A stretch of DNA of 33,569 nucleotides from Fibrobacteria bacterium (GCA_043732185.1 JAYTHY010000063.1:1-33569), one strand, 5' to 3'. Shown: positions 10,737-30,723, numbered from the stretch's first letter. Numbers and translations: made by a program. Notes: generated by a model not told the origin, from the letters alone.

Positions 10737-10737
10737 C

Positions 10738-13177: not shown

Positions 13178-13649
13178 TTAACTCGATATCTTGATCGGCT
13201 TCATTACAGCTACGAGAACACCCAAAGAAATAGCGCCTCCTGAAAATATTAAGCGAGAGGGAATATTTTCGGCAATACCGTATACCAAATGGAATAGCCA
13301 ATTCCGGACGAGATCGCGCCTGATAAACACGCCAAAGAGATTCCATACGAAGAAATTTTGTGCTGATACACGATAACCGGTAATAAAATGACGGAAAAGA
13401 GTGAAGCCAATAAAAAGTTTCCGGCTGTATTTGAAATGGGATTTGTCGATTTTTTTCCCAGGATGGAGTAGATGCCCCAACCATTTCATTTTTATCTGGG
13501 CCCAATCCGACTTTCATACTCCAGCCGATCATGGTCGCTTGCACGGAACCAAATAGAATCGGATTCAGAACGACCGCACCGCTTACTAGCCTGATCAAGG
13601 TGAAGGCAATCAAAACCACCGTTTTTAGCGTTAGGGAAGGATTGGCCAT
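13178..13649 (-). pseudogene. EamA/DMT-family transporter pseudogene with several internal deletions and frameshifts
   Basis: Family-like segments lie in three frames: FTLIRLVSGAVVL and ILFGSVQATMIGW; then GWGIYSILGKKSTNPISNTAGNFL...LACLSGAISSGIGYSIWYTVLPKI; then RLIFSGGAISLGVLVAV. About 470 bp against roughly 280 aa expected. Confidence 0.75.
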
Positions 13650-13729
13650 GGTTAGCGAAGGATCGGGTTTATTGTTCAGCATTCAACCAGAATAAGATTT
13701 GAGGGTGTTTTGGTCAGGTTCTTTTACTT

Positions 13730-13801
13730 TAACCCCTGTAAGGGATATTGACATTTATTCCCCTACAGGGTATAATTCAGATATATACCCCAGAAGGGAT
13801 A
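13730..13801 (+). promoter_or_regulatory. hipBA promoter with three HipB-type operators
   Basis: TTGACA (13748-13753), 17 nt, TATAAT (13771-13776). TATCC-N8-GGATA-like sites start at 13730, 13757 and 13784. Confidence 0.85.
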
Positions 13802-13804
13802 ATT

Positions 13805-14059
13805 ATGGAATACGCGGTTTTTACCCCAAAGCAATTGGCCCAGGCCCTGAAAGGCTGGCGCAAAAACCGAATGCTGACCCAGGCGGATGCGGCCGGTCAA
13901 GTGGGCTTAAGGCCCAAGACCATTTCAGCCCTCGAATCGAAACCGGAAACGAGTACGCTAAGCAGTTTTTTCAAACTGCTTTCGGCATTGGATTTAGAAT
14001 TGGTCCTTCGCGACAAATCCAAGGGGGCTGCCGGCAAAAGCCATTCGGGAGAGTGGTGA
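13805..14059 (+). CDS. hipB: HipB-like XRE HTH antitoxin
   Basis: TPKQLAQALKGWRKNRMLTQADAAGQVGLRPKTISALE..P...TL..FFKLLSALDLELVL. Start placed at ATG 13805, downstream of the promoter. Confidence 0.88.
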   Translation: MEYAVFTPKQLAQALKGWRKNRMLTQADAAGQVGLRPKTISALESKPETSTLSSFFKLLSALDLELVLRDKSKGAAGKSHSGEW

Positions 14060-14062
14060 CAT

Positions 14063-15385: not shown

Positions 15386-15465
15386 TATATTGGAATGGGT
15401 TCCAGAAATATGAATGATTTATTGGAATTGATTTCTCACGGCGCGGTTTACGGGTTTAATCGGTC

Positions 15466-16017
15466 CTCGAGGATCTGGAATTCTATTACCAACGCATTCT
15501 TAACACCATTGAAAAAACCATTTACGAAGACATCGCGCATTTTTTTTCTCTCAGCACTTCTAAACTACCGTTGTTCAAAAAGCTGCTGGTCTATTTGGCC
15601 TCCGTGCCTCCCGGCGAAATCAGCGTGAATACACTCGCACGCGATTTAGGTGTGGATCACAAAACCGTGCAAAGCTATTTGCAAATGTTGGAAGACACTT
15701 CCCTTATCCACAGCCTTAAATTGGGTCACACCGGTAAGGCCGCGCTCCGATCTCCGGACAAAGTGCTGCTGGAAAACGCAAACCTGTACCATGCCATTGC
15801 CGTGGAATCGGGTTTTGATGCCAATCCAGGAAGCTTGCGCGAAACCTTTTTTGTCAACGCCCTGCGCGGAGCCGGTATTCCCGTCCAATACAGCAAGGAG
15901 GGAGATTATCGGGCTGCCGGAAAGGTATTCGAAATTGGAGGCCGGAACAAAACCCGTAAGCAGCTCAAGGGCATACGCAATGGTTTATTGGTGAAGCATT
16001 TGGGTTTCCTGTGGTGA
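15466..16017 (+). pseudogene. C-terminal fragment of an AAA_14/DUF4143-type ATP-binding protein
   Basis: Frame reads YYQRILNTIEKTIYEDI...SPDKVLLENANL...GSLRETFFVNAL...FEIGGRNK. There is no ATPase N-terminus and the C-terminus is shortened (LLVKHLGFLW). Confidence 0.75.
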
Positions 16018-16036
16018 CAGCGAAGTCCGCGCCCAA

Positions 16037-17206
16037 TTAAACCAAGTAGGCCAGGAACTCCTGGGCTGACGCAATCAACAAATCCTTCTCACCTATTTTG
16101 ACCCACTTCCATCGGCCAGGTTCCGCGACAAGCTGTACAGCCATGATATTTCCCAAGACTGGTAAAAACTTTTTCCAGTTGGGAGAGGGCGCACCGTCTG
16201 ACCATTTCGTTTCCACCGCCATCCAGGGCTTTCCATCCTTGGCCACGAGAAAATCGATTTCCTGTTTTTCCTTATTCCGGATAAAGTGCAACGAAAACTC
16301 GCCCTCTCCTGCATCGGTCCAAAAATGGCAAGCCTTTAAAAGGTGCGAGCCCACAAGATTCTCATAGCGCGCCGCCTTTTCAGTGACTTCGCTGAAATCC
16401 CAAAGATAGGCCTTGCCCTCTTTTTTTAGCGAGCGGGACACGGCGCCTTGATACGGTTTGATTTCATAGAGGTAAAACAATTCTTGCAGGAACAGGACCC
16501 AACGTTTAACGGTCTCGTGATTCACATCCAGATGTTCTCGAAGCCCGGCAATGCTGAATAGCGACCCGACTTTTTCAGGCAACAAAGCTGCCAGCATTTC
16601 GATGCGGCTGAGTTCTGGAATACGGGTCAAATCCCGCAGGTCTTCGCGAATCACCTTTTCCACTCGGCCCCGACGCCACAGCCGGGCTTTCTTCTCATCC
16701 TGAGCAAATAGCGGTTCCGGAAATCCACCGAACTTCATCAGGCTCGCAAAGGCTTCCAGCCATTCTTTCTTTGGATTCAAGGCCCGCGTGCGCAACGCAT
16801 CAAAGAGGGAATCAGGTAAGAACTCCTTGTTCAAAACCATTTCCCGTAAGGTAAAGGGATGCAATCGGAAATGGAAATATCGTCCAAGCAAACTGTCGCT
16901 GCCTTTTTTGTACACATTCAAGCGCGCACTTCCCGTGACCAGAATATCCACCGGGCTTTCCAAAGTATCGAAAATACCTTTGATATTTCGCTTCCACATT
17001 TTGGCTTTGTGGATTTCATCCAGTACTAGGAGAGGAGTTTCTCCACGCTTCGCTGCCGGTACAATGAACTTTGGATCCTTGGCCCAAGCCCTTCGAAATT
17101 CCGTTTCATCCCAGTTGAAATACCCGCCCGCTCCCCGCGATTTTAAGAGCATTTTCGAAAAAGTGGTTTTGCCGACCGAATTACGATCTGATCGTAATTT
17201 GGTCAA
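16037..17206 (-). pseudogene. AAA_14 + DUF4143 ATP-binding protein with damaged N-terminus
   Basis: LVLDEIHK, VTGSARL, DSLLGRY, GGFPEP, ENLV..HLLK and EIDFLV..VETK are present. Walker A is cut to VGKTT, and the usual GPRQ part is replaced by a palindromic junction. Confidence 0.75.
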
Positions 17207-17218
17207 GATCTGACTGAA

Positions 17219-17836
17219 TTACGATCTGGTGTGGGAATGGTCGTAATTCTCAGGGAACAGGGTGCGCTCCACGCATTCGATGAGGATGTGCAGGGCGGTC
17301 ATGTGGATTTCTTGGATGCGCTCGGTAGTGTCCGATTCGACGATGATTTCATGAGTGCCGGTGCCTTTGAGTTGGCCGCCGGTTTTGCCCAGCAGGAGCA
17401 GGGTCTCCATGCCTAAGCTCTTGGCGGTTTCGACGGCGCGGATGACATTCTTCGAGTTGCCGCTGGTGCTGATGGCCAAAAGCAGATCGCCGGGTTTTCC
17501 ATAAGCTTCGACACCGCGGGCGAAGACTTCGTCCCAACCATAGTCGTTGGCGACGCAGGTTAAGTGAGAGGATTCAGTGAGGGCGATGACGGGCAGCGCT
17601 TTCCGGTGATTGCGGAAGCGGCCGGTGAATTCTTCGGCGAAGTGAATGGCGTCACAGGCGGAGCCACCGTTGCCGCAGGCTAGGACTTTGTTGCCGGATT
17701 TAAAGCAGGAGGCTAGGGCCGCGGTCATTGCGGAGAGAGTGGCGAGGTTGGCGGAGCTAGATTGGAAGCGATCGAGGGCGGTGCGGGCCTCGGTTAAGGA
17801 GTGGAGGAGGGCGTTTGGGATGGTTGCTGGGTTCAT
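17219..17836 (-). CDS. gmhA: Phosphoheptose isomerase
   Basis: CGNGGSACDAIHFAEEFTGRF, ANDYG, ISTSGNSKNV, RIQEIH. Confidence 0.95.
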   Translation of the reverse strand: MNPATIPNALLHSLTEARTALDRFQSSSANLATLSAMTAALASCFKSGNKVLACGNGGSACDAIHFAEEFTGRFRNHRKALPVIALTESSHLTCVANDYGWDEVFARGVEAYGKPGDLLLAISTSGNSKNVIRAVETAKSLGMETLLLLGKTGGQLKGTGTHEIIVESDTTERIQEIHMTALHILIECVERTLFPENYDHSHTRS

Positions 17837-17916
17837 GGGTCCGCCTGGGTTGGGGTTGGGAATGGCTCTATTTCTTGGGTGCCATTCTCGATGCCACCCA
17901 ACGAAGCTCCGGCAGG

Positions 17917-18297
17917 TTACACAGATCGTTTTTTAATCGGTTTCGTTTCCGATAGTAGGGAATCAGCAGGGATGTGCATTTTTTTGTGCAGGACCCGCAT
18001 CATTCGGATCGAGAGATTTCTTTTCCGATTCAATATTTCGGTCGACCGATTTCTTCCACCCAAAAACCGCGCCAAATCAGACTTTTTCATTCCAGATTGT
18101 TCCATCCTAAACTTAATGGCGTCAATAGGATCGGGTGGAAGGACTTTGAATTTTCCGCTTTCATAATTTTCAACTAATATCGCGAGGATGGAAAGCTCAT
18201 CGCCTTTCTTAGTATTGTTCTCTGCATCCCAGAGCGCGTCAATCCGAGTTAAAGCGGCCTGATAATCAGTCTCTGTCTTAATGGGTTTGATATTCAT
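17917..18297 (-). CDS. higA: HigA-family HTH antitoxin
   Basis: MNIKPIKTETDYQAAL...LVENYE...PPDPIDAIKFRMEQ...EILNRKRNLS. Confidence 0.9.
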   Translation of the reverse strand: MNIKPIKTETDYQAALTRIDALWDAENNTKKGDELSILAILVENYESGKFKVLPPDPIDAIKFRMEQSGMKKSDLARFLGGRNRSTEILNRKRNLSIRMMRVLHKKMHIPADSLLSETKPIKKRSV

Positions 18298-18299
18298 TA

Positions 18300-18477
18300 T
18301 TAAACGCTCCTTGCATCTATGGCGTCATATTCTTGGTGGGTCCCAACAAATCGGACATAAACGATTTTGAATTCATATTTGATGGCCACAATTAACCTGT
18401 ACTTATTCCCTTTGATATTGAACACAACCCGGTTTTTCCAAAAATTCCTTTAAAGTTCGCACTGAAATGACTCTCAC
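18300..18477 (-). pseudogene. higB: HigB toxin with internal deletion and frameshift
   Basis: GTG start [15 protein letters not shown] is joined out of frame to [44 protein letters not shown]; the middle of the gene is missing. Confidence 0.88.
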
Positions 18478-18492
18478 GCGCTATAAAGATAG

Positions 18493-18515
18493 CATGTTCC
18501 CATTTTGGGAACATG
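18493..18515. promoter_or_regulatory. Putative HigA operator palindrome
   Basis: CATGTTCCCA-TTT-TGGGAACATG, perfect 10-bp arms, just upstream of the higB start. Confidence 0.75.
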
Positions 18516-18530
18516 GGTTTACTGGATGGC

Positions 18531-18618
18531 GGCAGGCTTTCGATTCTTGTTTATGGCTATACCGCTACTGCCGGTTTTGTCGATGGGCAAAGCCAAGAGA
18601 GCGATAAGGCGTGGAGTT
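18531..18618 (+). repeat. Eroded copy 1 of the truncated outer-membrane gene at 24681-25124
   Basis: 18531-18596 matches 24686-24751 at 64/66; 18597-18608 equals 24828-24839; TGGAGTT (18612-18618) equals 25116-25122. Confidence 0.9.
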
Positions 18619-18698
18619 AGATAAACCCTTCCACGGGCTTCTTATCGCCTATCAAAGCACCCAGCCCACTTTGCGAGAGGGGAGGCCGTTTGCTTCAC

Positions 18699-18780
18699 TT
18701 CAAAAAAATGCGGGCGGACTTGGGTTTGTCTCAGTCGGAGATGACTGCGGCCCTCCATGTGTCTACGAAGACAATTCAAG
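18699..18780 (+). pseudogene. XRE HTH antitoxin fragment
   Basis: FKKMRADLGLSQSEMTAALHVSTKTIQ, cut off where the convergent Fic gene ends. Confidence 0.6.
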
Positions 18781-20302
18781 GAAAGGAATTCGCGATCAAT
18801 TTCTCGGCATCTGCCACTTCTTGGTCGGTCATCCAACCGAAATGAGCTTCCCGTTTTGCCTTGGAGATGCGGCCGGAATTCTGATCCGCACAGCGGATAA
18901 ACAGGTTTAGACTTTGCCCGGGCCAGTCCAGCAATTCATTTAGGGCAATTCGGGACTTTTCATACCCGATCAGAAAATCTATTTCCTTTTGCAGATCCTC
19001 TTTTACCGTGCGCTCAAGGGCCTGGTATAGGAACTCGGCTTGAACCGTGCAGTCGAAATACCGGAAGTAAAGGGCGTCATTACCGGTTGCAGGTAGATGG
19101 GGCATATCCGAATCGAATTGTGTGATTTGTAGCAGGGGTTGCGAGAACGCTTCCAGTACCCGAATGTATTCACTAAGATTGGCCAGTATCACAGCTGAAA
19201 CAGGTAGCACGATACCAGAAGGAGTAAATTCGGTTTTAGCGAGCATGTCATGGATCAAATAACGGTGTATGCGTCCATTTCCATCCATGAAAGGGTGAAT
19301 GAATACAAATCCGAAGGAAACGGTGGCTGCAAACACGACGGGATCCATGCCATTGTCTTTATTGTCTTTATTATCTTGGGCGATTCCCAAATTTAGCCTG
19401 TCATACTTTTCAGAAAAATTGAGTAGACCTACCATTAACATTGGTACATCTTCGGGGCGTGGCGGTACAAAATCCATTTTACTGCGATACCCAGGGTTTC
19501 TGCCAAGCCAATTCTGCCGAGTACGCCAACCGGCTTCCTGCAGCCGCGGATCCGCAACAGTATTTTGCAGCTCGATTAATCTGCTCATGGTCAATGGACT
19601 GTGGATGTCGGCATTCTGCAAAAGGTTCGCAAATCTTTGCGCGCGATCTGCTGTGGGCTTTTCCCGCTCGACTTCAAAAGAAGATTGCGTTTCTTTCAGG
19701 TAAAGAAAGTTGGCTGCTCTACTAAGCAAATCCGGATCGTAACGGTTGATCGTCTGCTGGATTTTTTGTTTGATATCCTCTTTAATTTTCTTGGCCAGAA
19801 ATGGCGTTCGCCGCACGAGAGGACAAAAGTCCCGATTTCCAGGCAGATTATCGGTAACTCGAAATTTTGTGCTTTGGCTACCGTTTTCCATACCGAATTG
19901 GAGTCGGGTATCCAGGACATCAACATAACGTGACTTGGACGATACCTTTGCATTTAACGATTTTCGCGTCAACCATTCAAAAAGAAAACCTATCCGCCGC
20001 GCATACTTGGATTCCGGATTCTCAATCAACCATGCCTGTATTTCATCGCCACCTGCTCGCTGGAAAAGCAGTGCCAAGATTTCAAGATTTACACCTTCAT
20101 ACTTTAGCGCGAACTGAAGGTGGCCGGACAACGTGTTCTTGGAGGCATACGCCGGTTCAAAAAGGAGGATTTCTTTGTTACGCTGAGTTGTTGTGCTTCG
20201 CCCTTTTATCGACGAATCGATACGCGCGCACCTTGTTAATGGCCGTGCCGGTAGCGAATACGTGTCAATTAAGAGTTGATAGCCAAGATTGCCATAGTCC
20301 AT
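18776..20302 (-). CDS. Fic-family protein (large type)
   Basis: Canonical HPFMDGNGRIHR motif; upstream SSFEVE resembles the inhibitory (S/T)xxxE helix. Confidence 0.92.
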   Translation of the reverse strand: MDYGNLGYQLLIDTYSLPARPLTRCARIDSSIKGRSTTTQRNKEILLFEPAYASKNTLSGHLQFALKYEGVNLEILALLFQRAGGDEIQAWLIENPESKYARRIGFLFEWLTRKSLNAKVSSKSRYVDVLDTRLQFGMENGSQSTKFRVTDNLPGNRDFCPLVRRTPFLAKKIKEDIKQKIQQTINRYDPDLLSRAANFLYLKETQSSFEVEREKPTADRAQRFANLLQNADIHSPLTMSRLIELQNTVADPRLQEAGWRTRQNWLGRNPGYRSKMDFVPPRPEDVPMLMVGLLNFSEKYDRLNLGIAQDNKDNKDNGMDPVVFAATVSFGFVFIHPFMDGNGRIHRYLIHDMLAKTEFTPSGIVLPVSAVILANLSEYIRVLEAFSQPLLQITQFDSDMPHLPATGNDALYFRYFDCTVQAEFLYQALERTVKEDLQKEIDFLIGYEKSRIALNELLDWPGQSLNLFIRCADQNSGRISKAKREAHFGWMTDQEVADAEKLIANSFP

Positions 20303-20441
20303 GCTGTTCCTAGAATTGGCCGCTATTGGAGATTTTAAGCCGCAATATCTAATCTACTGTAATTATACCTGCATTTGCGTGTCCTATTCTCATTTTACTT
20401 AAAAATGCGGCTATTTTTAGAGAATGCGGTGATTTTTGGGG

Positions 20442-20543
20442 GTGGACTCGAGTGCTGTTTGTCCGGAGCTGGGGGGATGGGGATCGTTTGCTTATTCTTC
20501 TTATTCCAGGTATCGGAGCAATCTGAGTTATGATTGGAGTTGG
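20442..20543 (+). repeat. Eroded copy 2 of the truncated outer-membrane gene
   Basis: 20442-20484 matches 24879-24921 at 41/43; AGTTATGATTGGAGTTGG (20526-20543) equals 25107-25124. Confidence 0.9.
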
Positions 20544-20604
20544 CTACTTCTCGAAATTGGGAGTTTGATGCTTCTTCGAATTCCAATCCTGAACGATTCT
20601 CAGA

Positions 20605-20857
20605 ATCCGATTCGACTAAGGAGATGCTCGATCATATCGCTTGCCTGGTGCTGGCGTAACGTCCTACTCGCTCATTTCTGAGCAGTTCCTTGGCTCCCGG
20701 AGAAATGGACTCGGCCACCAAGATCGACAGTGGCTCTTTAGCCTTGCCCTTGGGCCTTGTGTGATTGGTTTCCTTGAACTGCCAGAGAACCTGACGGACA
20801 TCTCATGGATAGACAGTTTTCTTGGCTTCGATTAGCATGACGAAGGACTTGCCAGCC
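20605..20857 (-). pseudogene. Diverged, internally deleted duplicate of the AbiE-like pair at 22444-24437
   Basis: 20605-~20665 aligns to 22446-~22506 and ~20662-20857 aligns to 24087-24282, with scattered substitutions. About 1.6 kb is missing at a short (C/T)CCT microhomology. Confidence 0.92.
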
Positions 20858-20894
20858 GAATCTGGCCGAAAAATATAATTCGGCCAGATTCGGC

Positions 20895-21375
20895 CAAAAC
20901 TGGAGCAAAAGCTTTCCTCGTGGATTACAGATGGCATCCGTCCATTGTTGCTTCCCCTCATTCAAATCAGGCGTACTGCCCAAGGCCCGATATTGGCTAT
21001 CCAAGTCGGTTCCGGTTCCAAGCGTCCCTGCGGAGTTGTTGGAAAATCCAGTCAGGATGTTTTCGTGCGCATCGGCTCCAGCACGCGCAAAGCGGATGCT
21101 GCAACTATCGAGCGAATGCGATTACAATCACAGGGGCGAACCTGGGATGGATTATAAATCGCTTCGCATACAGCGAATCAACCCGCTTGGCTCCCACCAA
21201 TGCGGGAGTCCTTTTTTTCCATCCCCGTCCTCAAGAAATCCTTCCTCAGGCAAAAGTGGAAATGGCCCGTTTCGATAGAGCCAGCGCCCGGAATTTCCAT
21301 GCTTCGAAATCCTGTCTTGGCCAGGGGATTCAGCGAAATCGGTTTGATAGTTGGCTGGGGAACCGGGATTCAAGT
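20895..21375 (+). pseudogene. AlbA_2 (Schlafen-like) / HATPase_c_4 regulator pseudogene with multiple deletions
   Basis: Fragments in different frames: LEQKLSSWITDGIRPLLLPLIQ...VFVRIGSSTRKAD; PTNAGVLFF..PQEILPQAKVEMARF; GISMLRNPVLARGFSEIGLIVGWGTGI. Confidence 0.75.
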
Positions 21376-21523
21376 TGCCCAAGAGGCGTTGAGAAAAGCC
21401 TCACTCTTGCGGCTACCATGGGTAGGATTACAACCGGGGACGACTAAGGCGGCGGCCTATCGGTTGCAAGGCATGGGAAGGGTCGATTGAAGGATTTAGG
21501 GCTGGGCCCTAGGCATCCAATCC

Positions 21524-21551
21524 GGATGTGCAGGGCGGTCGTGTGGATTTC
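21524..21551. repeat. 28-bp internal fragment of gmhA
   Basis: GGATGTGCAGGGCGGTCGTGTGGATTTC matches 17284-17311 at 27/28 and abuts the stop codon of the MNT gene. Confidence 0.85.
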
Positions 21552-21851
21552 CTAGGGTAGCAAAACGGTATGCGTCTTTTCCACAATCAGTTTGAAATCA
21601 GGCGAAACCGATGCGAGATCAATGACATCTACTCGAAAAGGAAGATCTGAATCTGAAAACGATTCTCGCAAATCCCAAATGGTTTCGGATGGAATCGGCT
21701 TATCGCTTAACAGCGCAAGATCCAAATCAGAAAAACGCTTGGCTTTTCCCGTTATTCTGCTTCCAAAAGCCCAAACTGTAGCGTCAGGAACGATTTTCCG
21801 CAAAATGGTGCGGACTTCTGACAATTGGTTGGATCCAATATCGACATTCAT
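21552..21851 (-). CDS. Minimal nucleotidyltransferase (MntA/HI0073-like antitoxin)
   Basis: AFGSRITGKAKRFSDLDLAL (GSx10DxD) and SDLPFRVDVID. Confidence 0.9.
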   Translation of the reverse strand: MNVDIGSNQLSEVRTILRKIVPDATVWAFGSRITGKAKRFSDLDLALLSDKPIPSETIWDLRESFSDSDLPFRVDVIDLASVSPDFKLIVEKTHTVLLP

Positions 21852-22170
21852 TCCTTACGCTTGGCCAAGCACTCCAGGAGGTCGTTTGCATCGGCAACGA
21901 AATTCACAGCTATGGCGTGCACTTCTTCGGCCTTGGCCTCTTGATAGGTATGGACAGTTTCATTGCGCGCCCGGTGATATCCAAACCAAAGGACCGGGTC
22001 CTTAAGCAATCTCAGTACCGTTTTAAAGACTTCCATGCTAATTCATACGTAAACTCAAACCGCTGAATGACGGAGTCCCGAAGAAACTCGTTTTTAGGCT
22101 CTAAGGTTGCCCGCCTAAGCGCCTCTAAAACTTGGCGATAGAGGTTTAGGTTGAGGGTTTCAGGCAGCAT
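21848..22170 (-). pseudogene. HEPN toxin (HI0074/HepT-like) with internal deletion and frameshift
   Basis: MLPETLNL...RDSVIQRFEFTYELAWKSLKRY*, then out of frame LLKDPVLWFGYHRARNETVHTY (Rx4H motif); the linking segment is absent. Confidence 0.85.
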
Positions 22171-22228
22171 GCATACAATGTACAGCTCTTTTTGAGGTTT
22201 TACCAAGGATGTCTTAGAGGCGGGGACA

Positions 22229-22396
22229 TATTTATTGGAAGCGGAATACCACCGCATGATAGATAGCGATAAGCCTCGGTCCTATATTTTTCCGCGGTTT
22301 TTTTTTCGGAAGTGGACTCGAGTCCGGATTGTCCTGAGCTGGGGGGATGGGGATCGGAGCAGCACGGGGACCCGCTTCATCCCAGTTATGATTGGA
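22229..22396 (+). repeat. Eroded copy 3 of the truncated outer-membrane gene
   Basis: Aligns to ~24795-24921, then jumps to ~25078-25119 (CGGAGCAGCA...CTTCATCCCAGTTATGATTGGA). Confidence 0.92.
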
Positions 22397-22443
22397 AGTA
22401 GGTGGTAAGGCCAGTTGTGTTGGCGAGGCTGGACAATGCTCCA

Positions 22444-23340
22444 CTATCCGATTCGACTAAGGAGATGCTCGATCACATCGCTTGCCTGCCGCTGGCGCAA
22501 CGCCCTCGCTTCGCGCTGCTCGGGCTCGTCGCTCTCACCAAGTTCGAACTTGGCGACCGACACGGGACCATCCTTGCGATAGCCTTCCGTTTTGTCGTCC
22601 TGTGTGAAGCGATTGCGTAAAATCGCCAATGAAGCCTTAATCACCGCTCCATGCTTGCCGTCCAGCTCCTTGCGGAAGGCTTCGGCAACGGCTTCCATTC
22701 CTTCGGGTGCGTTCTCAATGCAATAAACGAGATCGTGCGCATCCTTGCGTTCGAATCGCTGGTCGAATGCAAACGACTTCAGGCAGGTAAAGCTAATCAG
22801 ATTGGCGTGCTTGACCTTTTCGGTCGTCATGCCATTTTCGCCCAACAGCTCGGCGTGAATCTCAGTGACCTGATGAAGATCGAAAACGATGGACGAATGC
22901 GGAATGTTCAGCGCCGAAATTTTGCCCTTGGTCGGAAGTGGTTGAACCTTGCCGCCGGCGATGTCCGGTGCATCCGCTAGCAGCTCAAGCAACATTAGCG
23001 CACCGTTTTCGGTTCGTGTTTGCCAACGCCATGAAAGTTTTACCCCAGCCTCATTTTCGGCGCGCTCGAAGCCCATTTTCTTAAGGTTGTCTTCCAGCGT
23101 ATGATACGCATCGGTATTGGTCAGGATTTGCAGATCGATTACGATATCGACATCCAGTGTGCCGGCATGTGCTGGAACCGCTGGCGGTCGGGCGGCGACC
23201 AAATACCTAGGCGTGAGGCCACCCACTAAATAGATCGAGTTCTTCCAAGGCCCTAGCCCGCGCAGCAGCGTCACGAGGACGCGTTCGCAGTCGAATGTGT
23301 ACTGGTCATTGTAGCCAGAAAATGTCGTTGGTTTGGCCAT
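22444..23340 (-). CDS. Nucleotidyltransferase-fold protein, AbiEii-like partner of a type IV TA pair
   Basis: YLVGGL...HAGTLDVD motif and LKSFAFDQRFERKDAHDLVY; 1-nt overlap with the upstream gene. Confidence 0.75.
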   Translation of the reverse strand: MAKPTTFSGYNDQYTFDCERVLVTLLRGLGPWKNSIYLVGGLTPRYLVAARPPAVPAHAGTLDVDIVIDLQILTNTDAYHTLEDNLKKMGFERAENEAGVKLSWRWQTRTENGALMLLELLADAPDIAGGKVQPLPTKGKISALNIPHSSIVFDLHQVTEIHAELLGENGMTTEKVKHANLISFTCLKSFAFDQRFERKDAHDLVYCIENAPEGMEAVAEAFRKELDGKHGAVIKASLAILRNRFTQDDKTEGYRKDGPVSVAKFELGESDEPEQREARALRQRQASDVIEHLLSRIG

Positions 23341-24437
23341 CAGAAGCCGATCCTTTCTTTGCGCAGATGCTCAGCCATTTCTTTGGAGCGCCCTTCACCG
23401 CGTAGCAGATCGAGGTAGACCTGGACGGGACTGGCCAGCCAAATTCCGCCGACTTGTTCGCGAAACAGCAACTCACCGGGTGACTTCGCTTCAATGATAA
23501 CCAGGTTGGCGCCTTCGTTGACGACGCGTGCGCCGAGGTCGGCGATCGCGGCGTCGGCGTTTGCCCCGATCAGCATCCGAATACGCACCTGGGAGACGCT
23601 AGTGAGAAACGGAGCGTAGCTCTGCGCGGCAGCTTCATGGCTGACCGCGTACTTGGCATCATGCGCATCAAAGACTTCGCCGACACGCTGCAGCATCGCG
23701 TCCGGTTTGATGGCAGGCACGTAATAGCGGCGTAGATTTAAGGGCTGAATTAAAGCGAGCTGCTTCACCCAACCATCCAACAGGGCTGCGGGTTCGCGGA
23801 GATGCCGTTCTTTGCTAGGCCCCTGTCCGCGCGATGTCAGCCAGTCGAAGCGGTCCAGTTCCGTCAACACCTGCGAGGCGGTAGCCGGTGACACCATCGC
23901 CTGGTGCGCGAGTTCCTTGACACTGAACCAATCCTGATGTTGGACCAGCAAGGCGTGAACCACCTGCGCGCTTCGTCCGGAATACAGGGAGCGAAAGGCC
24001 TTCACTAGACTGTTGGGTTGCGGCTTGTCGATATAGAGATAGGCCCCCGGTGCAGGCAAATACAGACTGCCGCCGCTGTCGTAATACCCTACTCGCTCAT
24101 TTCTGAGCAGCTCCTTGGCTCCCGGAGAAATGGACTCGGCCACCAAGATCGATAGTGGCTTTTTAACCTGGCCCTTGGGCCTTGTGTGATTGGAATCCTT
24201 AAACTGCCAGAGAGCCTGACGGACATCTCGTGGATAAACAGCTTTCTTGGCTTCGATTAGCAAGATGAAGGACTTGCCAGCCACATGCAGGTCGATTTGA
24301 GCATCATGGCTGCGGCCGATGGTCGAACCAGCAGGTTTCCAGTGATCCAGGTCGGCGTGCACTTCGGGTAGTTGCCGCAGCGCTTCGAGAAACTGCTCGA
24401 TTAATTGCCGCTCGGTAATGGGGGATTCAAGCGTCAT
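23340..24437 (-). CDS. Type IV TA AbiEi-family antitoxin (winged HTH)
   Basis: VGYYDSGGSLYL, HTH SVKELAHQAMVSPATASQVL..L, LLDGW, EGANL, ASPVQVYLDL...GRSKEMAEHLR. Confidence 0.8.
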   Translation of the reverse strand: MTLESPITERQLIEQFLEALRQLPEVHADLDHWKPAGSTIGRSHDAQIDLHVAGKSFILLIEAKKAVYPRDVRQALWQFKDSNHTRPKGQVKKPLSILVAESISPGAKELLRNERVGYYDSGGSLYLPAPGAYLYIDKPQPNSLVKAFRSLYSGRSAQVVHALLVQHQDWFSVKELAHQAMVSPATASQVLTELDRFDWLTSRGQGPSKERHLREPAALLDGWVKQLALIQPLNLRRYYVPAIKPDAMLQRVGEVFDAHDAKYAVSHEAAAQSYAPFLTSVSQVRIRMLIGANADAAIADLGARVVNEGANLVIIEAKSPGELLFREQVGGIWLASPVQVYLDLLRGEGRSKEMAEHLRKERIGF

Positions 24438-24451
24438 GGAAATTAGGCTTC

Positions 24452-24524
24452 TTTACTGTTCAGTGAATAACTGAATTATAGCAAATAATTAATAATTATA
24501 CAATATTTACTGCTCAGTAAATAT
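24452..24524. promoter_or_regulatory. Two related inverted repeats upstream of the AbiEi gene (putative autoregulatory operators)
   Basis: TTTACTG-TT-CAGTGAA (24452-24467) and perfect ATATTTACTG-CT-CAGTAAATAT (24503-24524). Confidence 0.7.
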
Positions 24525-24680
24525 ATTGATATTTCCTTTGAATGGGTGAAAGCTCACGGAGTCGACGGGGCCAGGTGGTTTATTGTGCCACTATTTGCAG
24601 GCAATGGCCTGATCAAGTCTCTAGAAACTCAAATGTGATTTTGATACAATAAGCCTCTATCCTTTTTACCTGGGTTGGGT

Positions 24681-25157
24681 ATGCTGGCAGGCTTTCGATT
24701 CTTGTTTATGGCTCTACCGCTACTGCCGGTTTTGTCGATGGGCAATGCCAATCAACCGCTCGATCATCCCTATACTCTGAGGAACCAGAGTCCGTATTTA
24801 TTGGAAGCGGAATACCACCGCATGATCGAGAGCGATAAGCCTCGGTCTTATATTTTTCCGCGGCCCTGTTTTTCGGAAGTGGACTCGAGTGCGGTTTGTC
24901 CTGAGCTGGGGGGATGGGGATTTAAGGATTCTTTGCGGCAACGGAGTATGAGGCTTTCTCCCGTTGTTGGGTATGAGTACCGGTATCTAAACGAAAATGT
25001 GCATGCCGGGGATTTCGGGGTGATTACGGAAGGGGGTTCGGGACCGGTTTCGTTTTACTTGGATGCGCGGATGTATACGGAGCAGCATGAGGATTCACTT
25101 CATCCCAGTTATGATTGGAGTTGGGGGCTTAGTGGCGCGCAACGGGAAGTCTGTTGA
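24681..25157 (+). pseudogene. 5' fragment of an exported or outer-membrane protein (possibly Wzi-like); longest copy of the repeated unit
   Basis: Signal peptide and beta-strand-like segments (LSPVVGYEYRY, PVSFYLDARMY). It runs into the PIN remnant near 25125. The family call rests only on context. Confidence 0.55.
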
Positions 25158-25231
25158 GGAACTCGATAAACCTGATCCAGATCAGATGGCACGAAGATGA
25201 TTTTAACGTTGGTATCAAGAACGACGAGCAC
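25129..25231 (-). pseudogene. PIN-domain toxin remnant
   Basis: GTG start overlapping the AbrB gene's 3' end gives MLVVLDTNV (PIN signature). The core is missing; a possible C-terminus FIEFLNRLPVARH* is in another frame. Confidence 0.72.
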
Positions 25232-25487
25232 GACGACGGACTTTCTGAATAGCCTCCTCAACATCGCTTTTTTTTAGTCCTGCTTCCTTGGCGTAGCGGT
25301 AGCTATCCTGGATTAGCTTCTTGAAAGATGCGGCGCTTGGGGCCATGATAGGCTTCATGAGCAGATTGACCCCGTCGCTGAAGACCATAAGTTTAGTGCC
25401 TTCTTCTAGTCCCATTTGTTTCCGAATATCGTTAGGTATAACAACTTGACCCCTTGAGGATACGCTGGTAAACTCGACATGAGACAT
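25215..25487 (-). CDS. AbrB/MazE/SpoVT-family antitoxin
   Basis: TSVSSRGQVVIPNDIRKQMGLEEGTKL; SD GGAGG; upstream palindrome TACTTA-CTAA-TAAGTA (25511-25526). Confidence 0.9.
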   Translation of the reverse strand: MSHVEFTSVSSRGQVVIPNDIRKQMGLEEGTKLMVFSDGVNLLMKPIMAPSAASFKKLIQDSYRYAKEAGLKKSDVEEAIQKVRRRARRS

Positions 25488-25568
25488 GATGCCCCTCCAC
25501 TAATAAGATTTACTTACTAATAAGTATACACCCTTACTACCGATTCCGCCAACGCAAAAATTTTGGGT

Positions 25569-25910
25569 TTAAAAGCAAAGTTTCTTTCCTAGAGCGACAG
25601 GAGCTGGTCGGGCCTTTTTTTTGAAAGTCACGACCTTTGTCTTACGGGGCCGCAAAGTCAAATCCATTTCCAGGGCATCACAGACCTTGAAAAGTGTTTC
25701 CACATTGCAAGCCTTGGCATTCTCAACTTTGGATAACTGCTGCTGGGTAATATGGGCTTTTGTGGCTAAGTCCGCTTGGGTCATTCCCAGATTGTCCCGA
25801 GCCTGTGCAATTTCAATGGCGAGACGTGCCGCATGCAGCTCCTTCTCGTACCCTTGAGCGAATTCCCTGTCCTTGAGCATTTCTGCGAGTTGGTCACGAA
25901 AACGAATCAT
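25569..25910 (-). CDS. XRE HTH antitoxin-like protein with no adjacent toxin
   Basis: FRDQLAEMLKDREFAQGYE...IAQARDNLGMTQADLATKAHITQQQLSKVEN; ATG 25910 behind AAAGGAGG. Confidence 0.8.
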   Translation of the reverse strand: MIRFRDQLAEMLKDREFAQGYEKELHAARLAIEIAQARDNLGMTQADLATKAHITQQQLSKVENAKACNVETLFKVCDALEMDLTLRPRKTKVVTFKKKARPAPVALGKKLCF

Positions 25911-26019
25911 AAAGATCCTCCCTTTAATAACCATACATCATAACAGATGTAAGGCTAATCTTCTCCAATTCTATTGGAAAGACCACCAGAGCCCTTCGCG
26001 CGCGATCCAACCCGGGCCA

Positions 26020-26630
26020 TCATTCCTCTGTCAGGAACTGATGAAGATCCGGCATTGCCTTGGCCACGATGGTAAGGAGATCCTTCCGCCAGGAAGGATG
26101 CATGCTGGCATAGACTGTTTTGATGCTCTTCCGGCCGGCTCCACTTTTTAAGAGGAACTGAACGATACCTTGAGCAGCCTCTCGATCCTTGACCTTCTTT
26201 TCTGCATTCTTCCGCCGTGGCTGGATCAGGAACTTATGCAGGGCGTAAGCAGCTGGCTCCGGCACGTTCACCCGCAACCCATGGTAAGGAACTGTAAGTA
26301 CATTTTCAGCCAACATATCCAGCATACGAATACCGGATGCGTTGGTATTGAGCTTTGCAACTTTATAAGGTTCTTTCTGGCCTTTACCGTGCATGGGAAC
26401 CAGAAACTCCAGAAGTAGATCCGGATGGACATGCTTCTCAAGCCCGTCGGTCATATTAACCTGCACCTTGAAGTCGAGATTCGCTAAAATATTTGGGACA
26501 TTCACTACTTTTTTGATCCGACTGAGCCGTGGGATTAGGAAGTCGATATCCAAGGTCCTAAGTCTTCCAAAATACCTTCATGGTCAAAACTCTTGAGGAT
26601 GGAGAGAACCAAATTACGCTGCGCGGACAC
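26020..26630 (-). pseudogene. GSU2403-like nucleotidyltransferase-fold protein with internal deletion and frameshift near the N-terminus
   Basis: GTG 26630 gives MSAQRNLVLSILKSFDHEGILEDL, joined out of frame to LRTLDIDFLIP...VPEPAAYALHKFLI..RR...K..KDR. The glycine-containing (IGSW-type) motif between them is missing. Confidence 0.72.
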
Positions 26631-26928
26631 GAAGCATCCTTTCCACCTCTTTAAGGTTAGTTTTTGCTTTTTTAACCAAAGCCTCAAGCTTCCTCCGTTC
26701 AGCAACTTTATCATTCATTTTCTGAACAGACTCGGAGGAAGCCAAACCAAGATAGTCAAAATGGATTTGCCCCTTTTTTCGATAAGCAAGGTAGGCGTAT
26801 TCACCATTGCGGATACGCTTAAGCGAGATGGAACCGCGAGGAAAGGCCTTTACCTCCGAGCCATACAAACGAAGCAGGGCCTTTAGCCTTTGCTTTTCTT
26901 CTTTAAGTACACCGCGTAAGACGCTCAT
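26614..26928 (-). CDS. Small basic coiled-coil protein, upstream partner of the nucleotidyltransferase (putative antitoxin or regulator)
   Basis: PRGSISLKRIRNGEYAYLAYRKKGQIHFDYLG flanked by helices; upstream palindrome TTGTTA-CC-TAACAA. Confidence 0.7.
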   Translation of the reverse strand: MSVLRGVLKEEKQRLKALLRLYGSEVKAFPRGSISLKRIRNGEYAYLAYRKKGQIHFDYLGLASSESVQKMNDKVAERRKLEALVKKAKTNLKEVERMLRVRAA

Positions 26929-27076
26929 AGTTGTTACCTAACAATAATAATTTTATGATACTTTGTTAGTTAATAGCCGTCAACTAGGTATTTAGTGTTT
27001 TTAATGGGCGGTATTGGAGATTTTTCCCTATACGCGATTTTTGGGCCACTCCGCACGACGGCTAAGAGGTAGTGAT

Positions 27077-27157
27077 GTCACCGTGAACCCCGCTATCTTC
27101 GGGGGTAAGCCCTTGATCCGGGGTCACCGATTGGCGGTGGAACACGTTCTGGGGCTG
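27077..27157 (+). pseudogene. DUF433 antitoxin-like fragment
   Basis: VTVNPAIFGGKPLIRGHRLAVEHVLGL matches the DUF433 pattern; no start and no C-terminus. Confidence 0.8.
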
Positions 27158-27178
27158 CCGCATTGAACTCATTTCCTC

Positions 27179-27532
27179 CTAAAGAGTCTTCAACCTCTCA
27201 CGGCTCTTCCTCCGACCGGGAGGACTCTTTCTTCTTTCGGGTTCGAACTTAAAGCGCAGGCGGTGACCGGTTGCTACCGCGATGCGTTCCAACGTAGTGA
27301 CCGTGGGATTATCCGCCTCGCCGCTTTCCAGTCTGGCAATAACTTGCTGAGAGACGCCCAAGCGCTGGGCCAACACCTTTTGGGTAAGGCCTGCCGTTTC
27401 CCTCAAGTCCCGGATTTTAAGGCCGATTTTGAGAATATCATGATAGTGCTCGTACGCCTCCCGGAACGTCTTGTTCTTGAGCTTGGCATCGAGATAGCCA
27501 TTGAAGCTGTTGTCGATCTCATCTTTTTTCAT
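27179..27532 (-). CDS. XRE HTH antitoxin
   Basis: IRDLRETAGLTQKVLAQRLGVSQQVIARLESG..NPTVTTLERIA. Confidence 0.9.
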   Translation of the reverse strand: MKKDEIDNSFNGYLDAKLKNKTFREAYEHYHDILKIGLKIRDLRETAGLTQKVLAQRLGVSQQVIARLESGEADNPTVTTLERIAVATGHRLRFKFEPERRKSPPGRRKSRERLKTL

Positions 27533-27533
27533 T

Positions 27534-27881
27534 TTATCCTCCGTGCCTCGTTTGCCAGTCCTTCATACGTTTCAGCGCCAACTTAAGATCTTGCTTGGGC
27601 GTTTCCTGTGTCTTCTTTAGGATGCTATGAAGAAGCACAGCCGAATCACCCAAGTGAAAAAAGAAAAAGACCCGATACGGTCCCGCTGAGATTTTGAACC
27701 GAAGCTCTTTGATCTTGTCCTGCATAAACTTGACATGGGGCTCCCTTAAAGTATGCCCTTGCTGTTGAAGGAGACTAAGATGAGCTGCGGCCCTGGCCTG
27801 ATCGGGTTCCGACAACTTCTCTAGGTCTTCTTTGACCGGCATATGGCCATTTTCATTCACGTAGAAAAGGATCTTGGTCAC
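27534..27881 (-). CDS. RelE/ParE-superfamily (Gp49/HigB-like) toxin, intact
   Basis: FY....G..PVKE, LREPHVKFMQDKIKELR, YRVFFF, LLHSILKKTQETP. Confidence 0.9.
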   Translation of the reverse strand: MTKILFYVNENGHMPVKEDLEKLSEPDQARAAAHLSLLQQQGHTLREPHVKFMQDKIKELRFKISAGPYRVFFFFHLGDSAVLLHSILKKTQETPKQDLKLALKRMKDWQTRHGG

Positions 27882-27887
27882 TCATAT

Positions 27888-27916
27888 AGGATACAACAAA
27901 TGTGTTGTATCGTCAA
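27888..27916 (-). promoter_or_regulatory. Promoter and operator of the RelE-HTH pair
   Basis: Minus-strand TTGACG, 17 nt, TATCCT, overlapped by the palindrome GATACAACA-AATG-TGTTGTATC (27890-27911). Confidence 0.7.
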
Positions 27917-28170
27917 TAAGATTACAACTGCTTCCTTCAGTATCAAAGCCGCGCGCGGGGGAAGTAATGCGTGCGGGATTGTCTCCACGCAGGTGCCCGG
28001 CACAGGCGTGGGTCCGGCCCTGTCCAAGGCCCTTCACCTAAGCCTGGCGCAAGTCCCCGTCTTTTCTGGTTCCGAGGGATTTTGGCCCTGAGTTTCCTCT
28101 TTTGGGGCTTGCCTGCCCTCCCGGAAAGACGTATTCTTATATTATAACATCTATATAACGGAGGCGTCCC

Positions 28171-28377
28171 GTGATCAAGCAGCTCACTCGTATAGGCAAC
28201 AGCCAAGGAATCATTCTCGACAAGGCTATTTTGGAACTCCTCAACATCAAGGACGGCGCGTCTTTCGATGTGTCGACCAAGAACGGCGGCCTTTTTTTGA
28301 AGCCCGTCGACATCAAGGAAATCTATGAGGATGTCGCCAAACACCACCGCAAGACCTTGGATAAGTTGGGTCGATGA
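28171..28377 (+). CDS. AbrB/MazE-type antitoxin (Doc partner)
   Basis: KQLTRIGNSQGIILDKAILELLNI...HRKTLDKLG; SD GGAGG. Confidence 0.9.
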   Translation: MIKQLTRIGNSQGIILDKAILELLNIKDGASFDVSTKNGGLFLKPVDIKEIYEDVAKHHRKTLDKLGR

Positions 28378-28530
28378 GCGATCCTATTTTCCTTTCGTTG
28401 GAACAGGTTCTCTACATTCAGAAGGCTGAAGCCTCTCTGACCCACAGCCTTGGCGGATTTGGTTTTAGGTTATCTGAACAAGGAAGCGACCAAGGACGAC
28501 TTGACCCGGTATTTTAAGGACCACGCCTAG
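28374..28530 (+). pseudogene. Doc (death-on-curing) toxin with the catalytic core deleted
   Basis: ATGA overlap. MSDPIFLSLEQVLYIQKAEASLTHS is joined out of frame to LADLVLGYLNKEATKDDLTRYFKDHA*; no HxFxDGNKR motif. Confidence 0.8.
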
Positions 28531-28581
28531 GCCCTCCGCGCGCAACCCCACCTGGGAGGCCTTTCCCTTGGCTCTTTCCGC

Positions 28582-28610
28582 TGGACATGTAGCTACATTG
28601 TAGTTATACT
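28582..28610 (+). promoter_or_regulatory. brnTA promoter with operator palindrome
   Basis: TGGACA, 17 nt, TATACT, with CTACA-T-TGTAG in the spacer; ATG follows 6 nt after the -10. Confidence 0.6.
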
Positions 28611-28616
28611 CTTTTT

Positions 28617-28789
28617 ATGCGATTCGAGTGGGATTTAGTCAAAGACGAGATCAACCGCAAAAAGCACGGGATCTCTTTCGAGAGGGCCCAACTGGTTTTC
28701 AGTGACCCTCTGGCTCTTTCCGTTCCGGATGAGGAACATTCCAAAGATGAAGAGGTCATCCCACGAACTTGCCAGGAGGTACAAGATGA
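28617..28789 (+). pseudogene. brnT: BrnT toxin with C-terminal half deleted
   Basis: MRFEWDLVKDEINRKKHGISFERAQLVFSDP...DEEHSKDEE; the R..lG...lVV...RIISAR part is absent. Confidence 0.85.
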
Positions 28790-29040
28790 AGAAGGAGTAC
28801 GATTTCAGCGGAGGAGAACGCGGGAAGTTCTTCCGCGAGAACAAGGTGCAGAAGACGCTGCGCCTCGATGCCGATATTTTGGAGTACTTCCAGACCCTAT
28901 CCAGCCGGAAGCACGTTCCCTATCAAACCCTCATCAACAACACGCTTCGGGAAGCCATGGAGCATCCCGGCAGCGGCATCGACTTGAAGCTTCTGAGGAA
29001 GGAGATCCACTTGGCGGTACAAAGTGCCATTCGGAAGTAA
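28786..29040 (+). CDS. brnA: BrnA antitoxin
   Basis: MKKEYDFSGGERGKF...TLRLDADILEYFQ...PYQTLINNTLRE; SD AGGAGG. Confidence 0.9.
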   Translation: MKKEYDFSGGERGKFFRENKVQKTLRLDADILEYFQTLSSRKHVPYQTLINNTLREAMEHPGSGIDLKLLRKEIHLAVQSAIRK

Positions 29041-29139
29041 CTGAACTGGCACCGCTATTCCTGGTTGGAATCTGCCTGCCTAGTTCAAAATGCGGCAAGG
29101 GTGACATGTGCCAGTAGTTATGAGTTATAATTCTGCCCT

Positions 29140-30723
29140 ATGCCCGGCTCGGTCTCCCAACAGCTCACTCGATATTTAATCAACCGGGCCCGCCTGGGAT
29201 TGATATGCACCGCTTTGGTTACGGGCGCTTTTGTTACCCCCACATTTAGCCAGGATACCCTGCACACACTTCCCGTCTCTTTAACGGTTGATTTCGGCGC
29301 CTACCCCCTGGAACGCAGCTACCCCCTAGGCCACCCCTTCGAATCCTTCGGCTCCGGCTGGGGCTCAGTACGCATTAGTCCCGAACTCGCCCACACCTGG
29401 ACCGAACTTCCTCCCGCCATTAAAACGGAACTCCGCTACCCGGTTTCGCCCCATACCTTTGTCTACTTCCGCCTAGGCCTCCGCCGGGATTTGGCCGCCT
29501 GGCACGGGGATGCCTATGGCTTTAATCTTCCCTTTGCCGCCAAGGAAGTGGACCTGAATGAGCCCTCCCTAGGCTATTTCCATGCCGAAAACGAAAATTT
29601 TGCTTTCACCGTGGGTCGTTTTCAGGTGCATTGGTCTCCGTCCCCGGACTTTGGCCTCGCCTTGAGCCGTTCCGTTCCCTATCACAATGCCGCCGAATTC
29701 GCGCTTAAGACGCCTTATGTCAAGTACCGTTTTCTGCTGTCCAGCTTGAACCCGTGGCTCGAAGGAACCCCCGGCGGTGATTCTGCCGGCACCGAGTACC
29801 CTGTGGGGTCCGAGGAGTATCGGCAGCGGCATTATGCCGATCAGAATCAGGCCAACAATGCGCATAAGCGCGTGTATGACGACCGGATCAAAACCCTTAT
29901 CGCCCATCGGCTGGAGGGGTATGTGGGCCCGGCAACTTTGGGAATGACTGAGACGGAGATCATCGGCGGCAAAGTTCCGGATTTGCGAGATGGCAATCCG
30001 TTTGCTTTTTTTCACAATGATTTCAAAGATGGGTATACGAACCTTGCCTTGAGCTTTGATGGTTCGGTGCGGTTGCCATGGGGTTTGCGGGTGTTTGGGG
30101 AGCTGATACTGGATGATGTGATCTATTCGGCTACGGAAACCGATGGTTCGTCGGCGTCACTTATCGGTTACCTGGCGGGTGTGGCCCATGTTTTTAGTGC
30201 GCGGGGCTGGCTGTTCTCGCAAAGTGTGCAGACGGTGCGGACGGATCCGTATTTATACGGGTATGTGCAGCCGCTGAATACCATGTCTTCGCGTCAAGTT
30301 TTGAGCAGCAATTTCATTGGGCTGGAAAACGGCAAGGCGGTGGACAAAGTCATAGATAAGTTTGTGGTCGACTATCCGCTGGGGTATTTACGCGGCGGGG
30401 ATGCGCTGGATTTTTGGTATCGGATGGATGCGGTGCGGGGGAGTAGGTTGGAGGTTTCGATGACCGTCGGGATTTTGTCCAAGGGTGTGGTGGATTTGTA
30501 TACGCCTTATGAGACGTACTATTCGAGTGGGCATGATGCGCCGACTGGGATTGCGGAGCGGGAGCTGCGCGTTCGGGTGAGTGGGAGCTACCGTATGATG
30601 CACGGGCTTGCGGTGCATGGTGGGATTGGGTGGCAGAGTTTTCAGGGTGAAGGGCATGTGGCTGGGCAGGATGTGAACCGGGGGCAGGGGTCGCTGGGAG
30701 TTTCGTGGAAGTTTCCGGAGTAG
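29140..30723 (+). CDS. Outer-membrane beta-barrel protein, capsule-assembly Wzi-like
   Basis: Signal peptide; FTVGRFQVHWSP, KTLIAHRLE, FGELILDD and PLGY..GGD resemble Wzi-family motifs; C-terminal aromatic strand; lies next to fcl and the SLBB gene. Confidence 0.65.
   Translation: MPGSVSQQLTRYLINRARLGLICTALVTGAFVTPTFSQDTLHTLPVSLTVDFGAYPLERSYPLGHPFESFGSGWGSVRISPELAHTWTELPPAIKTELRYPVSPHTFVYFRLGLRRDLAAWHGDAYGFNLPFAAKEVDLNEPSLGYFHAENENFAFTVGRFQVHWSPSPDFGLALSRSVPYHNAAEFALKTPYVKYRFLLSSLNPWLEGTPGGDSAGTEYPVGSEEYRQRHYADQNQANNAHKRVYDDRIKTLIAHRLEGYVGPATLGMTETEIIGGKVPDLRDGNPFAFFHNDFKDGYTNLALSFDGSVRLPWGLRVFGELILDDVIYSATETDGSSASLIGYLAGVAHVFSARGWLFSQSVQTVRTDPYLYGYVQPLNTMSSRQVLSSNFIGLENGKAVDKVIDKFVVDYPLGYLRGGDALDFWYRMDAVRGSRLEVSMTVGILSKGVVDLYTPYETYYSSGHDAPTGIAERELRVRVSGSYRMMHGLAVHGGIGWQSFQGEGHVAGQDVNRGQGSLGVSWKFPE

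Follow-up and report, generated by a model that had tools for sequence, protein, structure and literature searches.

A stretch of 33,569 nucleotides (nt) from a Fibrobacteria bacterium (GCA_043732185.1 JAYTHY010000063.1:1-33569), referred to as the window, contains between positions 17917 and 29040 six toxin-antitoxin (TA) pairs whose toxins belong to the HigB, HEPN, PIN, NTP_transf_8, Doc and BrnT types, and in all of them (6/6) the toxin gene is broken and the adjoining antitoxin gene is full length. An initial annotation, which had reported the six toxin remnants, offered two readings of this pattern, namely an ordered decay in which the toxin must be lost first, and a selected library of immunity genes directed against incoming TA-bearing elements. 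We show herein that the region is best understood, with a probability of about 0.8, as a variable TA and defence islet undergoing erosion by small deletions, toxins being lost first. Toxin-first decay fits better than a purpose-built immunity store, as deletions have struck genes outside TA pairs, a predicted antitoxin (DUF433) is itself broken, later stages of decay can be seen, and a census of relatives yielded ten loci with only the toxin damaged as against none with only the antitoxin damaged; the immunity library gained no positive support.

The window spans contig C63 of the genome under study (G000; 4.46 Mb in 139 contigs) from end to end. Since 99% of the sequence words sampled from the region are found in two sediment metagenome runs, X1 and X2, G000 was probably binned from these metagenomes. 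Related genomes, designated G001, G002, G004 and so forth, were used for comparison, and contigs, of G000 as well as of its relatives, are designated C40, C67, C80 and the like. Toxin remnants and their partners were judged by Pfam, by reading in three frames, and by alignment or tblastn against intact relatives. The PIN and Doc remnants gave no match in Pfam or NCBIfam, their pieces being too short, and relatives were used instead.

Internal deletions of 122, 73, 73, 227 and 127 nt were mapped in HigB, HEPN, NTP_transf_8, Doc and BrnT, respectively. The HigB remnant (18300-18477, minus strand) retains its GTG start and its last 45 codons, with the two parts out of frame. Residues 1-17 and 55-99 of the intact 99-amino acid orthologue of G008 remain, such that only positions 35/39-74 of the 74 positions of Pfam HigB_toxin are matched, as compared with 1-74 in G008. 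The missing 122 nt are present in G008 and G009, both of which have an intact HigB, and in the alignment with G008 the junction falls between imperfect direct repeats, GG(G/T)AAAA(G/A)CCGGG, that match at 11 of 13 positions. The HEPN remnant (HI0074-type; 21848-22170, minus strand) lacks 73 nt relative to G002 and consists of two pieces, covering profile positions 2-52 and 75-124 of 126, that lie in different frames. Its RNETVH motif is kept but out of frame, so that no single open frame carries the Rx4-6H motif; an intact version occurs in G001. The NTP_transf_8 nucleotidyltransferase remnant (26020-26630, minus strand; profile positions 43-203 of 218) retains its start and most of its body, and the 73 nt that are gone relative to G005 took with them the LIGSW segment found in five relatives with an intact enzyme of 230-238 amino acids. 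In the Doc remnant (28374-28530, plus strand), residues 1-25 and 102-127 of 132 are kept, and the missing 227 nt, which G008 and G021 possess in intact genes, include the HHPFLDANKR Fic motif. The BrnT remnant (28617-28789, plus strand) matches profile positions 1-41 of 77; its deletion is common to G000 and G008, and G004 has an intact gene.

PIN departs from this pattern. What is left of this PIN_3 gene (25205-25264, minus strand) comprises the first 19-20 codons only; tblastn with the intact 150-amino acid PIN_3 protein of G004 matches residues 1-19, and the DNA alignment stops after VLDTNV. The lesion is a 3' truncation, and the stump abuts an outer-membrane-type gene on the opposite strand, gene R, which is itself cut to 160 of approximately 500 codons. 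The simplest reading would be a single larger deletion that took the 3' ends of both convergent genes. The six remnants lie where the initial annotation had put them, and its claim that each toxin had lost an internal block holds for five of them, PIN being the exception. The alignment of remnants to intact homologues that it had suggested mapped the deletions against G008, G002, G005 and G004.

Two upstream sequences deserve mention. A 10-bp inverted repeat, CATGTTCCCAAAATGGGAACATG, lies at 18493-18515, directly upstream of the HigB start; this repeat resembles an operator, and was flagged as terminator-like by the scan. A conserved palindromic stretch, TGTAGCTACA(A/T)TGTAGTTATACT, lies directly upstream of BrnT (28582-28612) in G000, G004, G012 and G006 (alignment A1). 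This palindrome overlaps a promoter-like site and is likely an operator; G008 has lost it.

The six partners are full length, as annotated, in that each matches its counterparts in relatives, in most of which the toxin is intact. The HigA-type helix-turn-helix (HTH) antitoxin (17917-18297, minus strand; 126 amino acids) has the same length in G008 and G009, two genomes with an intact HigB, and differs from that of G008 at two amino acids. The MNT nucleotidyltransferase antitoxin beside HEPN (21552-21851, minus strand) has 99 amino acids here and in G001; it matches Pfam Polbeta and NTP_transf_2, and NCBIfam MntA_antitoxin with an E-value of 5e-14 that falls below the cut-off of that model. The AbrB/MazE-type antitoxin beside PIN (25215-25487, minus strand; Pfam MazE_antitoxin) has 90 amino acids, as in G004 and G010, the AbrB-type partner of Doc (28171-28377, plus strand) has 68, as in G008 and G021, and BrnA (28786-29040, plus strand; Pfam BrnA_antitoxin) has 84, as in G004 and G012. 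By type, HEPN/MNT is type VII-like, AbrB/PIN is VapBC-like, and Doc with its AbrB partner is Phd/Doc-like. The partner of the nucleotidyltransferase (26614-26928, minus strand) is an intact protein of 104 amino acids that no Pfam or NCBIfam family names. Its homologues, of 104-106 amino acids, overlap an intact nucleotidyltransferase of 230-238 amino acids in 5/5 relatives having an intact one, and from this conserved two-gene arrangement the two genes can be regarded as a putative TA pair. The orphan HTH antitoxin noted at 25569 also proved real: this XRE-type, antitoxin-like gene (25569-25934, minus strand; Pfam HTH_3) has a homologue in G007 with a Gp49-type toxin in front of it, and the G000 site leaves no space for a toxin. 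Again in agreement with the initial annotation, no intact toxin stands beside a broken antitoxin in the window.

One might ask whether mis-assembly or binning of a mixed population had produced the deletions or the module order, a suspicion fed by the origin of the sequence in a metagenome bin of 139 contigs, by the repeats in the islet, and by the different joins seen in other samples. However, Logan contigs of runs X1 and X2 cover 17200-18589, 20698-22258 and 24797-29200 without differences or gaps, and together span every toxin junction at an even depth of ~12. Because they reproduce each junction exactly, an error of one assembler is ruled out, these contigs being a second assembly of the probable source data rather than a second sample, one that rare population variants could escape. 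Moreover, the BrnT junction is present in G008, a separately assembled genome, and a contig of run X4 that extends over 26522-28633, and for which neither joint nor gap is reported, spans the Doc junction near 28449. The repeats at the junctions, of 13 nt or fewer, are also far too short to mislead an assembler. We therefore consider an artefact highly improbable, the least probable of the alternatives weighed here. The deletions are more certain than the order in which the larger blocks lie between repeat copies. Other joins in runs X3 and X4 connect 20604 to 22446, 20686 to 24112, and 25114 back to 20480; from these joins, the block order of the islet appears to vary between strains of other samples.

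The deletions are not specific to toxins. They have also broken a permease gene, two ATPase genes, the outer-membrane gene and the predicted antitoxin DUF433. Over 13445-20476, G000 lacks 103, 129, 78, 102, 494, 42, 89 and 122 nt relative to G008, and G008 lacks only 2 nt relative to G000. The first three of these deletions lie in the permease-like gene and those of 494 and 89 nt in the AAA/DUF4143 ATPase genes, members of the PADLOC candidate family PDC-S01; all of these genes (13038-17206) are open in G008 and were broken by deletions found in G000 only, and an intact HipBA pair lies among them. The DUF433 remnant (27005-27163, plus strand) has lost 135 nt in frame and retains Pfam positions 1-27 of 56, more than half of the domain being gone; the 83-amino acid protein of G008 covers 1-56/56. 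DUF433 was predicted by Makarova et al. 2009 (PMC2701414) to act as an antitoxin of PIN toxins. Several of the junctions in the islet sit between short imperfect direct repeats. As a control, positions 2652-12322 align to G008 in one piece (9671 versus 9686 nt, 94% identity), and because these 9.7 kb of housekeeping DNA are free of deletions, it follows that deletions accumulate only where they are tolerated. The broken DUF433 gene and many pseudogenes outside TA pairs had been overlooked in the initial annotation, as had two intact pairs described below.

The pattern extends throughout the clade, and the order of loss can be followed across relatives. For BrnT/BrnA, 38 loci from 41 related genomes were compared, drawn from 27 of 63 BrnT-profile matches and 17 loci found through BrnA, with some overlap. 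Both genes are intact at 24/38 loci, BrnT is broken or gone and BrnA full length at 10/38 (representing nine events, as G000 and G008 share one), both are damaged at 2/38 (G010:C40, and G018:C80, where BrnA has 70 amino acids and not 84), and 2/38 lie at contig ends; an intact BrnT with a broken BrnA was found at 0/38, in genomes that are related and not independent and for which no formal test is given. The ten toxin-only loci exhibit internal deletions, a nonsense codon, a frameshift or near-total loss of BrnT. Other pairs show comparable lesions. PIN of G010 is split over two frames, consistent with a frameshift, next to an intact AbrB, and HEPN of an unpublished genome (G011), which was used in no count, has suffered an in-frame internal loss. 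A second AbrB-Doc locus in G000 (C67:30370-30773) has an intact 68-amino acid AbrB, 79% identical to that of the window; the Doc beside it was struck independently by an internal deletion and also carries a frameshift. Further stages are represented by G002, in which HEPN is frameshifted by 2 nt and MNT lacks 75 nt, and by G005, whose nucleotidyltransferase has an internal stop and near which no partner open reading frame of at least 80 amino acids was found. Erosion also continues in genes already struck: G008 carries a second BrnT deletion, which takes the BrnT start, the BrnT remnant is shorter by another 64 nt in a contig of run X4, and other-sample contigs skip 226 nt of a gene for a 298-amino acid protein described below and have joints within the nucleotidyltransferase remnant and the orphan HTH gene.

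These observations can be accommodated by a simple scheme. Deletions of ~40-500 nt, several of which are bounded by short imperfect direct repeats, perhaps arise by a slippage-type mechanism and would strike at any point of the islet that tolerates them. Loss of part of a toxin gene would be tolerated or even helpful, and damage to an antitoxin whose toxin is still active should be fatal to the cell. As loss of the antitoxin first should be lethal, the first lesion in each pair would fall in the toxin, and the antitoxin would be left as a short-lived orphan that decays later.

An alternative is that the orphans constitute a selected archive of antitoxins, which would confer anti-addiction or anti-defence immunity when elements bearing related toxins arrive. 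It would agree with the full length of partners from six families. However, in the HigB and Doc remnants the sequence to either side of the junction still matches G008 at 100% identity. Both losses are hence of recent date and have left the partners too little time to decay, so that full-length partners would be seen with or without selection. Nor are antitoxins consistently spared, DUF433 being broken in the window, MNT in G002 and BrnA in G010, with BrnA shortened in G018. Intact toxins occur among the orphans, and the same deletions destroy unrelated genes. A genome profile search found no other BrnT, HigB_toxin, NTase_sub_bind or NTP_transf_8 gene in G000, and in favor of the archive it can be said that a resident cognate toxin cannot explain the retention of these orphans. 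On balance, we regard a selected archive as unlikely.

Retention on account of a resident toxin was rejected for these four families. Elsewhere in G000, six PIN genes, one PIN_3, one ParE-type gene and one Doc-sized Fic-family gene are intact, and the only close antitoxin paralogue, that on C67, also sits beside a broken Doc. The Doc-sized gene (C50:85184-85561) reads YSSIVDGNKR at the position of the Fic motif; the catalytic histidine may thus be absent and the product inactive, though untruncated.

Some observations weigh against toxin-first decay, and the first of them provides the archive with its only signal of selection. Between G000 and G008, two species that share the BrnT deletion, BrnA, the only case in which divergence postdates a shared loss of the toxin, shows eight synonymous and no non-synonymous differences, and the persistence of an intact BrnA in both could mean that the orphan is under selection. 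Seven of the eight differences, however, lie within nt 45-114 and are derived in G008. This clustering suggests an imported patch, whose differences selection may already have filtered in a different lineage, and the apparent patch thus confounds the selection signal; BrnA as a clean proof of selection after toxin loss was weakened once the changes were polarized. Overall divergence between the two genomes is 3.1% in BrnA, close to the values for the BrnT remnant (3.8%) and the spacer (4.1%), and pairs other than BrnT/BrnA hold too few changes for selection to be read. A more pointed version of the archive, in which incoming TA modules are quickly disarmed by deletion and the surviving antitoxins of many families are retained by selection as a permanent shield against plasmids or phages bearing related toxins, with BrnA as its first sign, appears to us no less doubtful.

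Promoter-like sites are another such observation. They are found upstream of four modules (the 104-amino acid gene, BrnT, AbrB-PIN and an intact Gp49 pair), as matches to the consensus only, of which 19 were found against 11.1 +/- 3.3 expected. The upkeep of such sites upstream of some modules could also be taken to mean that DNA-binding antitoxins of the AbrB, HTH and ribbon-helix-helix types have been domesticated as regulators of host genes, and most of the partners do have DNA-binding folds. On the other hand, MNT and the 104-amino acid protein are not of DNA-binding types, orphans are lost in relatives, and no target or conserved new context was found for these antitoxins. Domestication is thus very unlikely, more so than the archive. 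The last observation of this kind is the tally of the islet itself, in which six pairs (seven with the orphan HTH gene) have lost only the toxin and one recognizable pair has a broken antitoxin, compared with a ratio of toxin-only to both-broken pairs of about 1:1 in Photorhabdus; the comparison is weak because fully decayed pairs would be unrecognizable. Toxin-first decay in an eroding islet remains the explanation that best fits the evidence as a whole.

The islet sits inside a polysaccharide-synthesis locus, bounded by a SIS/GmhA-type gene (17219-17836; Pfam) and by outer-membrane and export genes. By Pfam, the flanks of the window encode UDP-glucose dehydrogenase, epimerases and a Poly_export/SLBB exporter. 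These flanks are conserved in G008 and the content of the islet differs, as befits a variable spot between conserved genes. Two TA pairs are intact in the islet. One, a Gp49/RelE-type toxin of 115 amino acids with an HTH antitoxin of 117 (27179-27881, minus strand; Gp49 1-90/90 and HTH_3 in Pfam), lies among the orphans, and the other, HipB-HipA (13748-15385, plus strand; Pfam HTH_3, and HipA_C with Couple_hipA), lies in the same islet, outside 17917-29040. A Fic-domain protein of 508 amino acids (18776-20302, minus strand; Pfam Fic, and PADLOC PDC-S24 with an E-value of 6e-165) is intact here and in G008.

A further intact module, an AbiE-like pair (22444-24437, minus strand), encodes an AbiEi-like protein of 365 amino acids and a nucleotidyltransferase-like protein of 298. 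The two are 82-94% identical in amino acid sequence to proteins labelled Betaproteobacteria or other Proteobacteria, and their genes form a G+C-rich patch with a G+C fraction of 0.55-0.58; identity and composition together suggest a recent transfer across phyla. The source names of the pair conflict ("antitoxin" and "AbiEi family antitoxin"), and the roles of toxin and antitoxin were therefore left unassigned. A collapsed second copy of this module lies at 20605-20857 (minus strand), where 20605-20665 matches 22446-22506 and 20650-20857 matches 24075-24282, at 91-92% identity.

The remaining debris includes several pieces of gene R. Its truncated copy (24675-25157, plus strand) has 160 codons, as compared with open frames of ~490-530 amino acids in relatives. 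Three fragments on the same strand, at 18526-18622 (94-97% identical to 24681-24751), 20432-20543 (matching residues 174-194 of the G008 R protein by tblastn) and 22229-22409 (a partial copy of the 5' end), bring to four the number of partial 5' copies between modules, each a deletion derivative of the longest. We infer that these fragments may have been left behind when genes were repeatedly acquired through recombination in the flanking gene. A cassette array or integron, which the repeats between modules had suggested, was rejected, as the repeats are the gene R fragments and occur on this contig only; integrases were not searched for. A remnant of an AlbA_2/HATPase_c_4 gene (20879-21487, plus strand) is spread over two frames, with matches to AlbA_2 positions 54-117/118 (E-value 6e-4) and HATPase_c_4 positions 33-74/89 (E-value 2.5e-6). 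Finally, a relic of 52 nt (21500-21551, minus strand), 81% identical to 17260-17311, represents the 3' end of a second SIS/GmhA-type gene.

A recent study of Photorhabdus (Belot et al. 2026, Mol Biol Evol, PMC13617665) reported that TA pairs cluster in small spots of high turnover, and that 30 of 80 predicted pairs were not validated, most of them having truncated toxin genes. Toxin-only loss was counted 185 times, loss of both genes 186 times and antitoxin-only loss eight times, and a "two-step decay" model, in which the toxin is inactivated before the antitoxin is lost, was proposed explicitly. The islet described here resembles that situation in its clustered pairs within a variable spot, its truncated toxins and, by the BrnT/BrnA census, the rarity of antitoxin-only loss. 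It differs in that a single metagenome-derived genome is concerned, known from its sequence alone, that six families lie side by side in 11 kb, and that all mapped lesions are deletions of 73-227 nt or larger.

Unpaired antitoxins are also common in Klebsiella pneumoniae, with a median of nine per strain, where either decay or a possible anti-addiction role was discussed as the reason for their presence (Horesh et al. 2020, PMC7192599). That survey was population-wide, whereas in the present islet the broken toxin is still visible beside each orphan and documents its origin. Saavedra De Bast et al. in 2008 reportedly described anti-addiction modules, chromosomal antitoxins that could neutralize a related toxin on an incoming plasmid, and Mine et al. 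in 2009 are said to have found, for the decay of chromosomal ccdO157, that toxins decay and antitoxins stay functional. By comparison with anti-addiction modules, expression of the orphans described here and neutralization by them are only hypothetical. Whether orphan antitoxins confer immunity is an old question, to which this locus contributes candidates for testing rather than an answer.

The locus adds a new case, unusual in its density, to a published pattern, and does not represent a new kind of system. It provides a snapshot of chromosomal TA pairs in the course of dying, with six families caught at the same early stage within 11 kb and their breakpoints mapped. It also extends the toxin-first model of erosion put forward for Photorhabdus to an uncultured sediment bacterium, in which the lesions belong to a general process of deletion in a dispensable islet.

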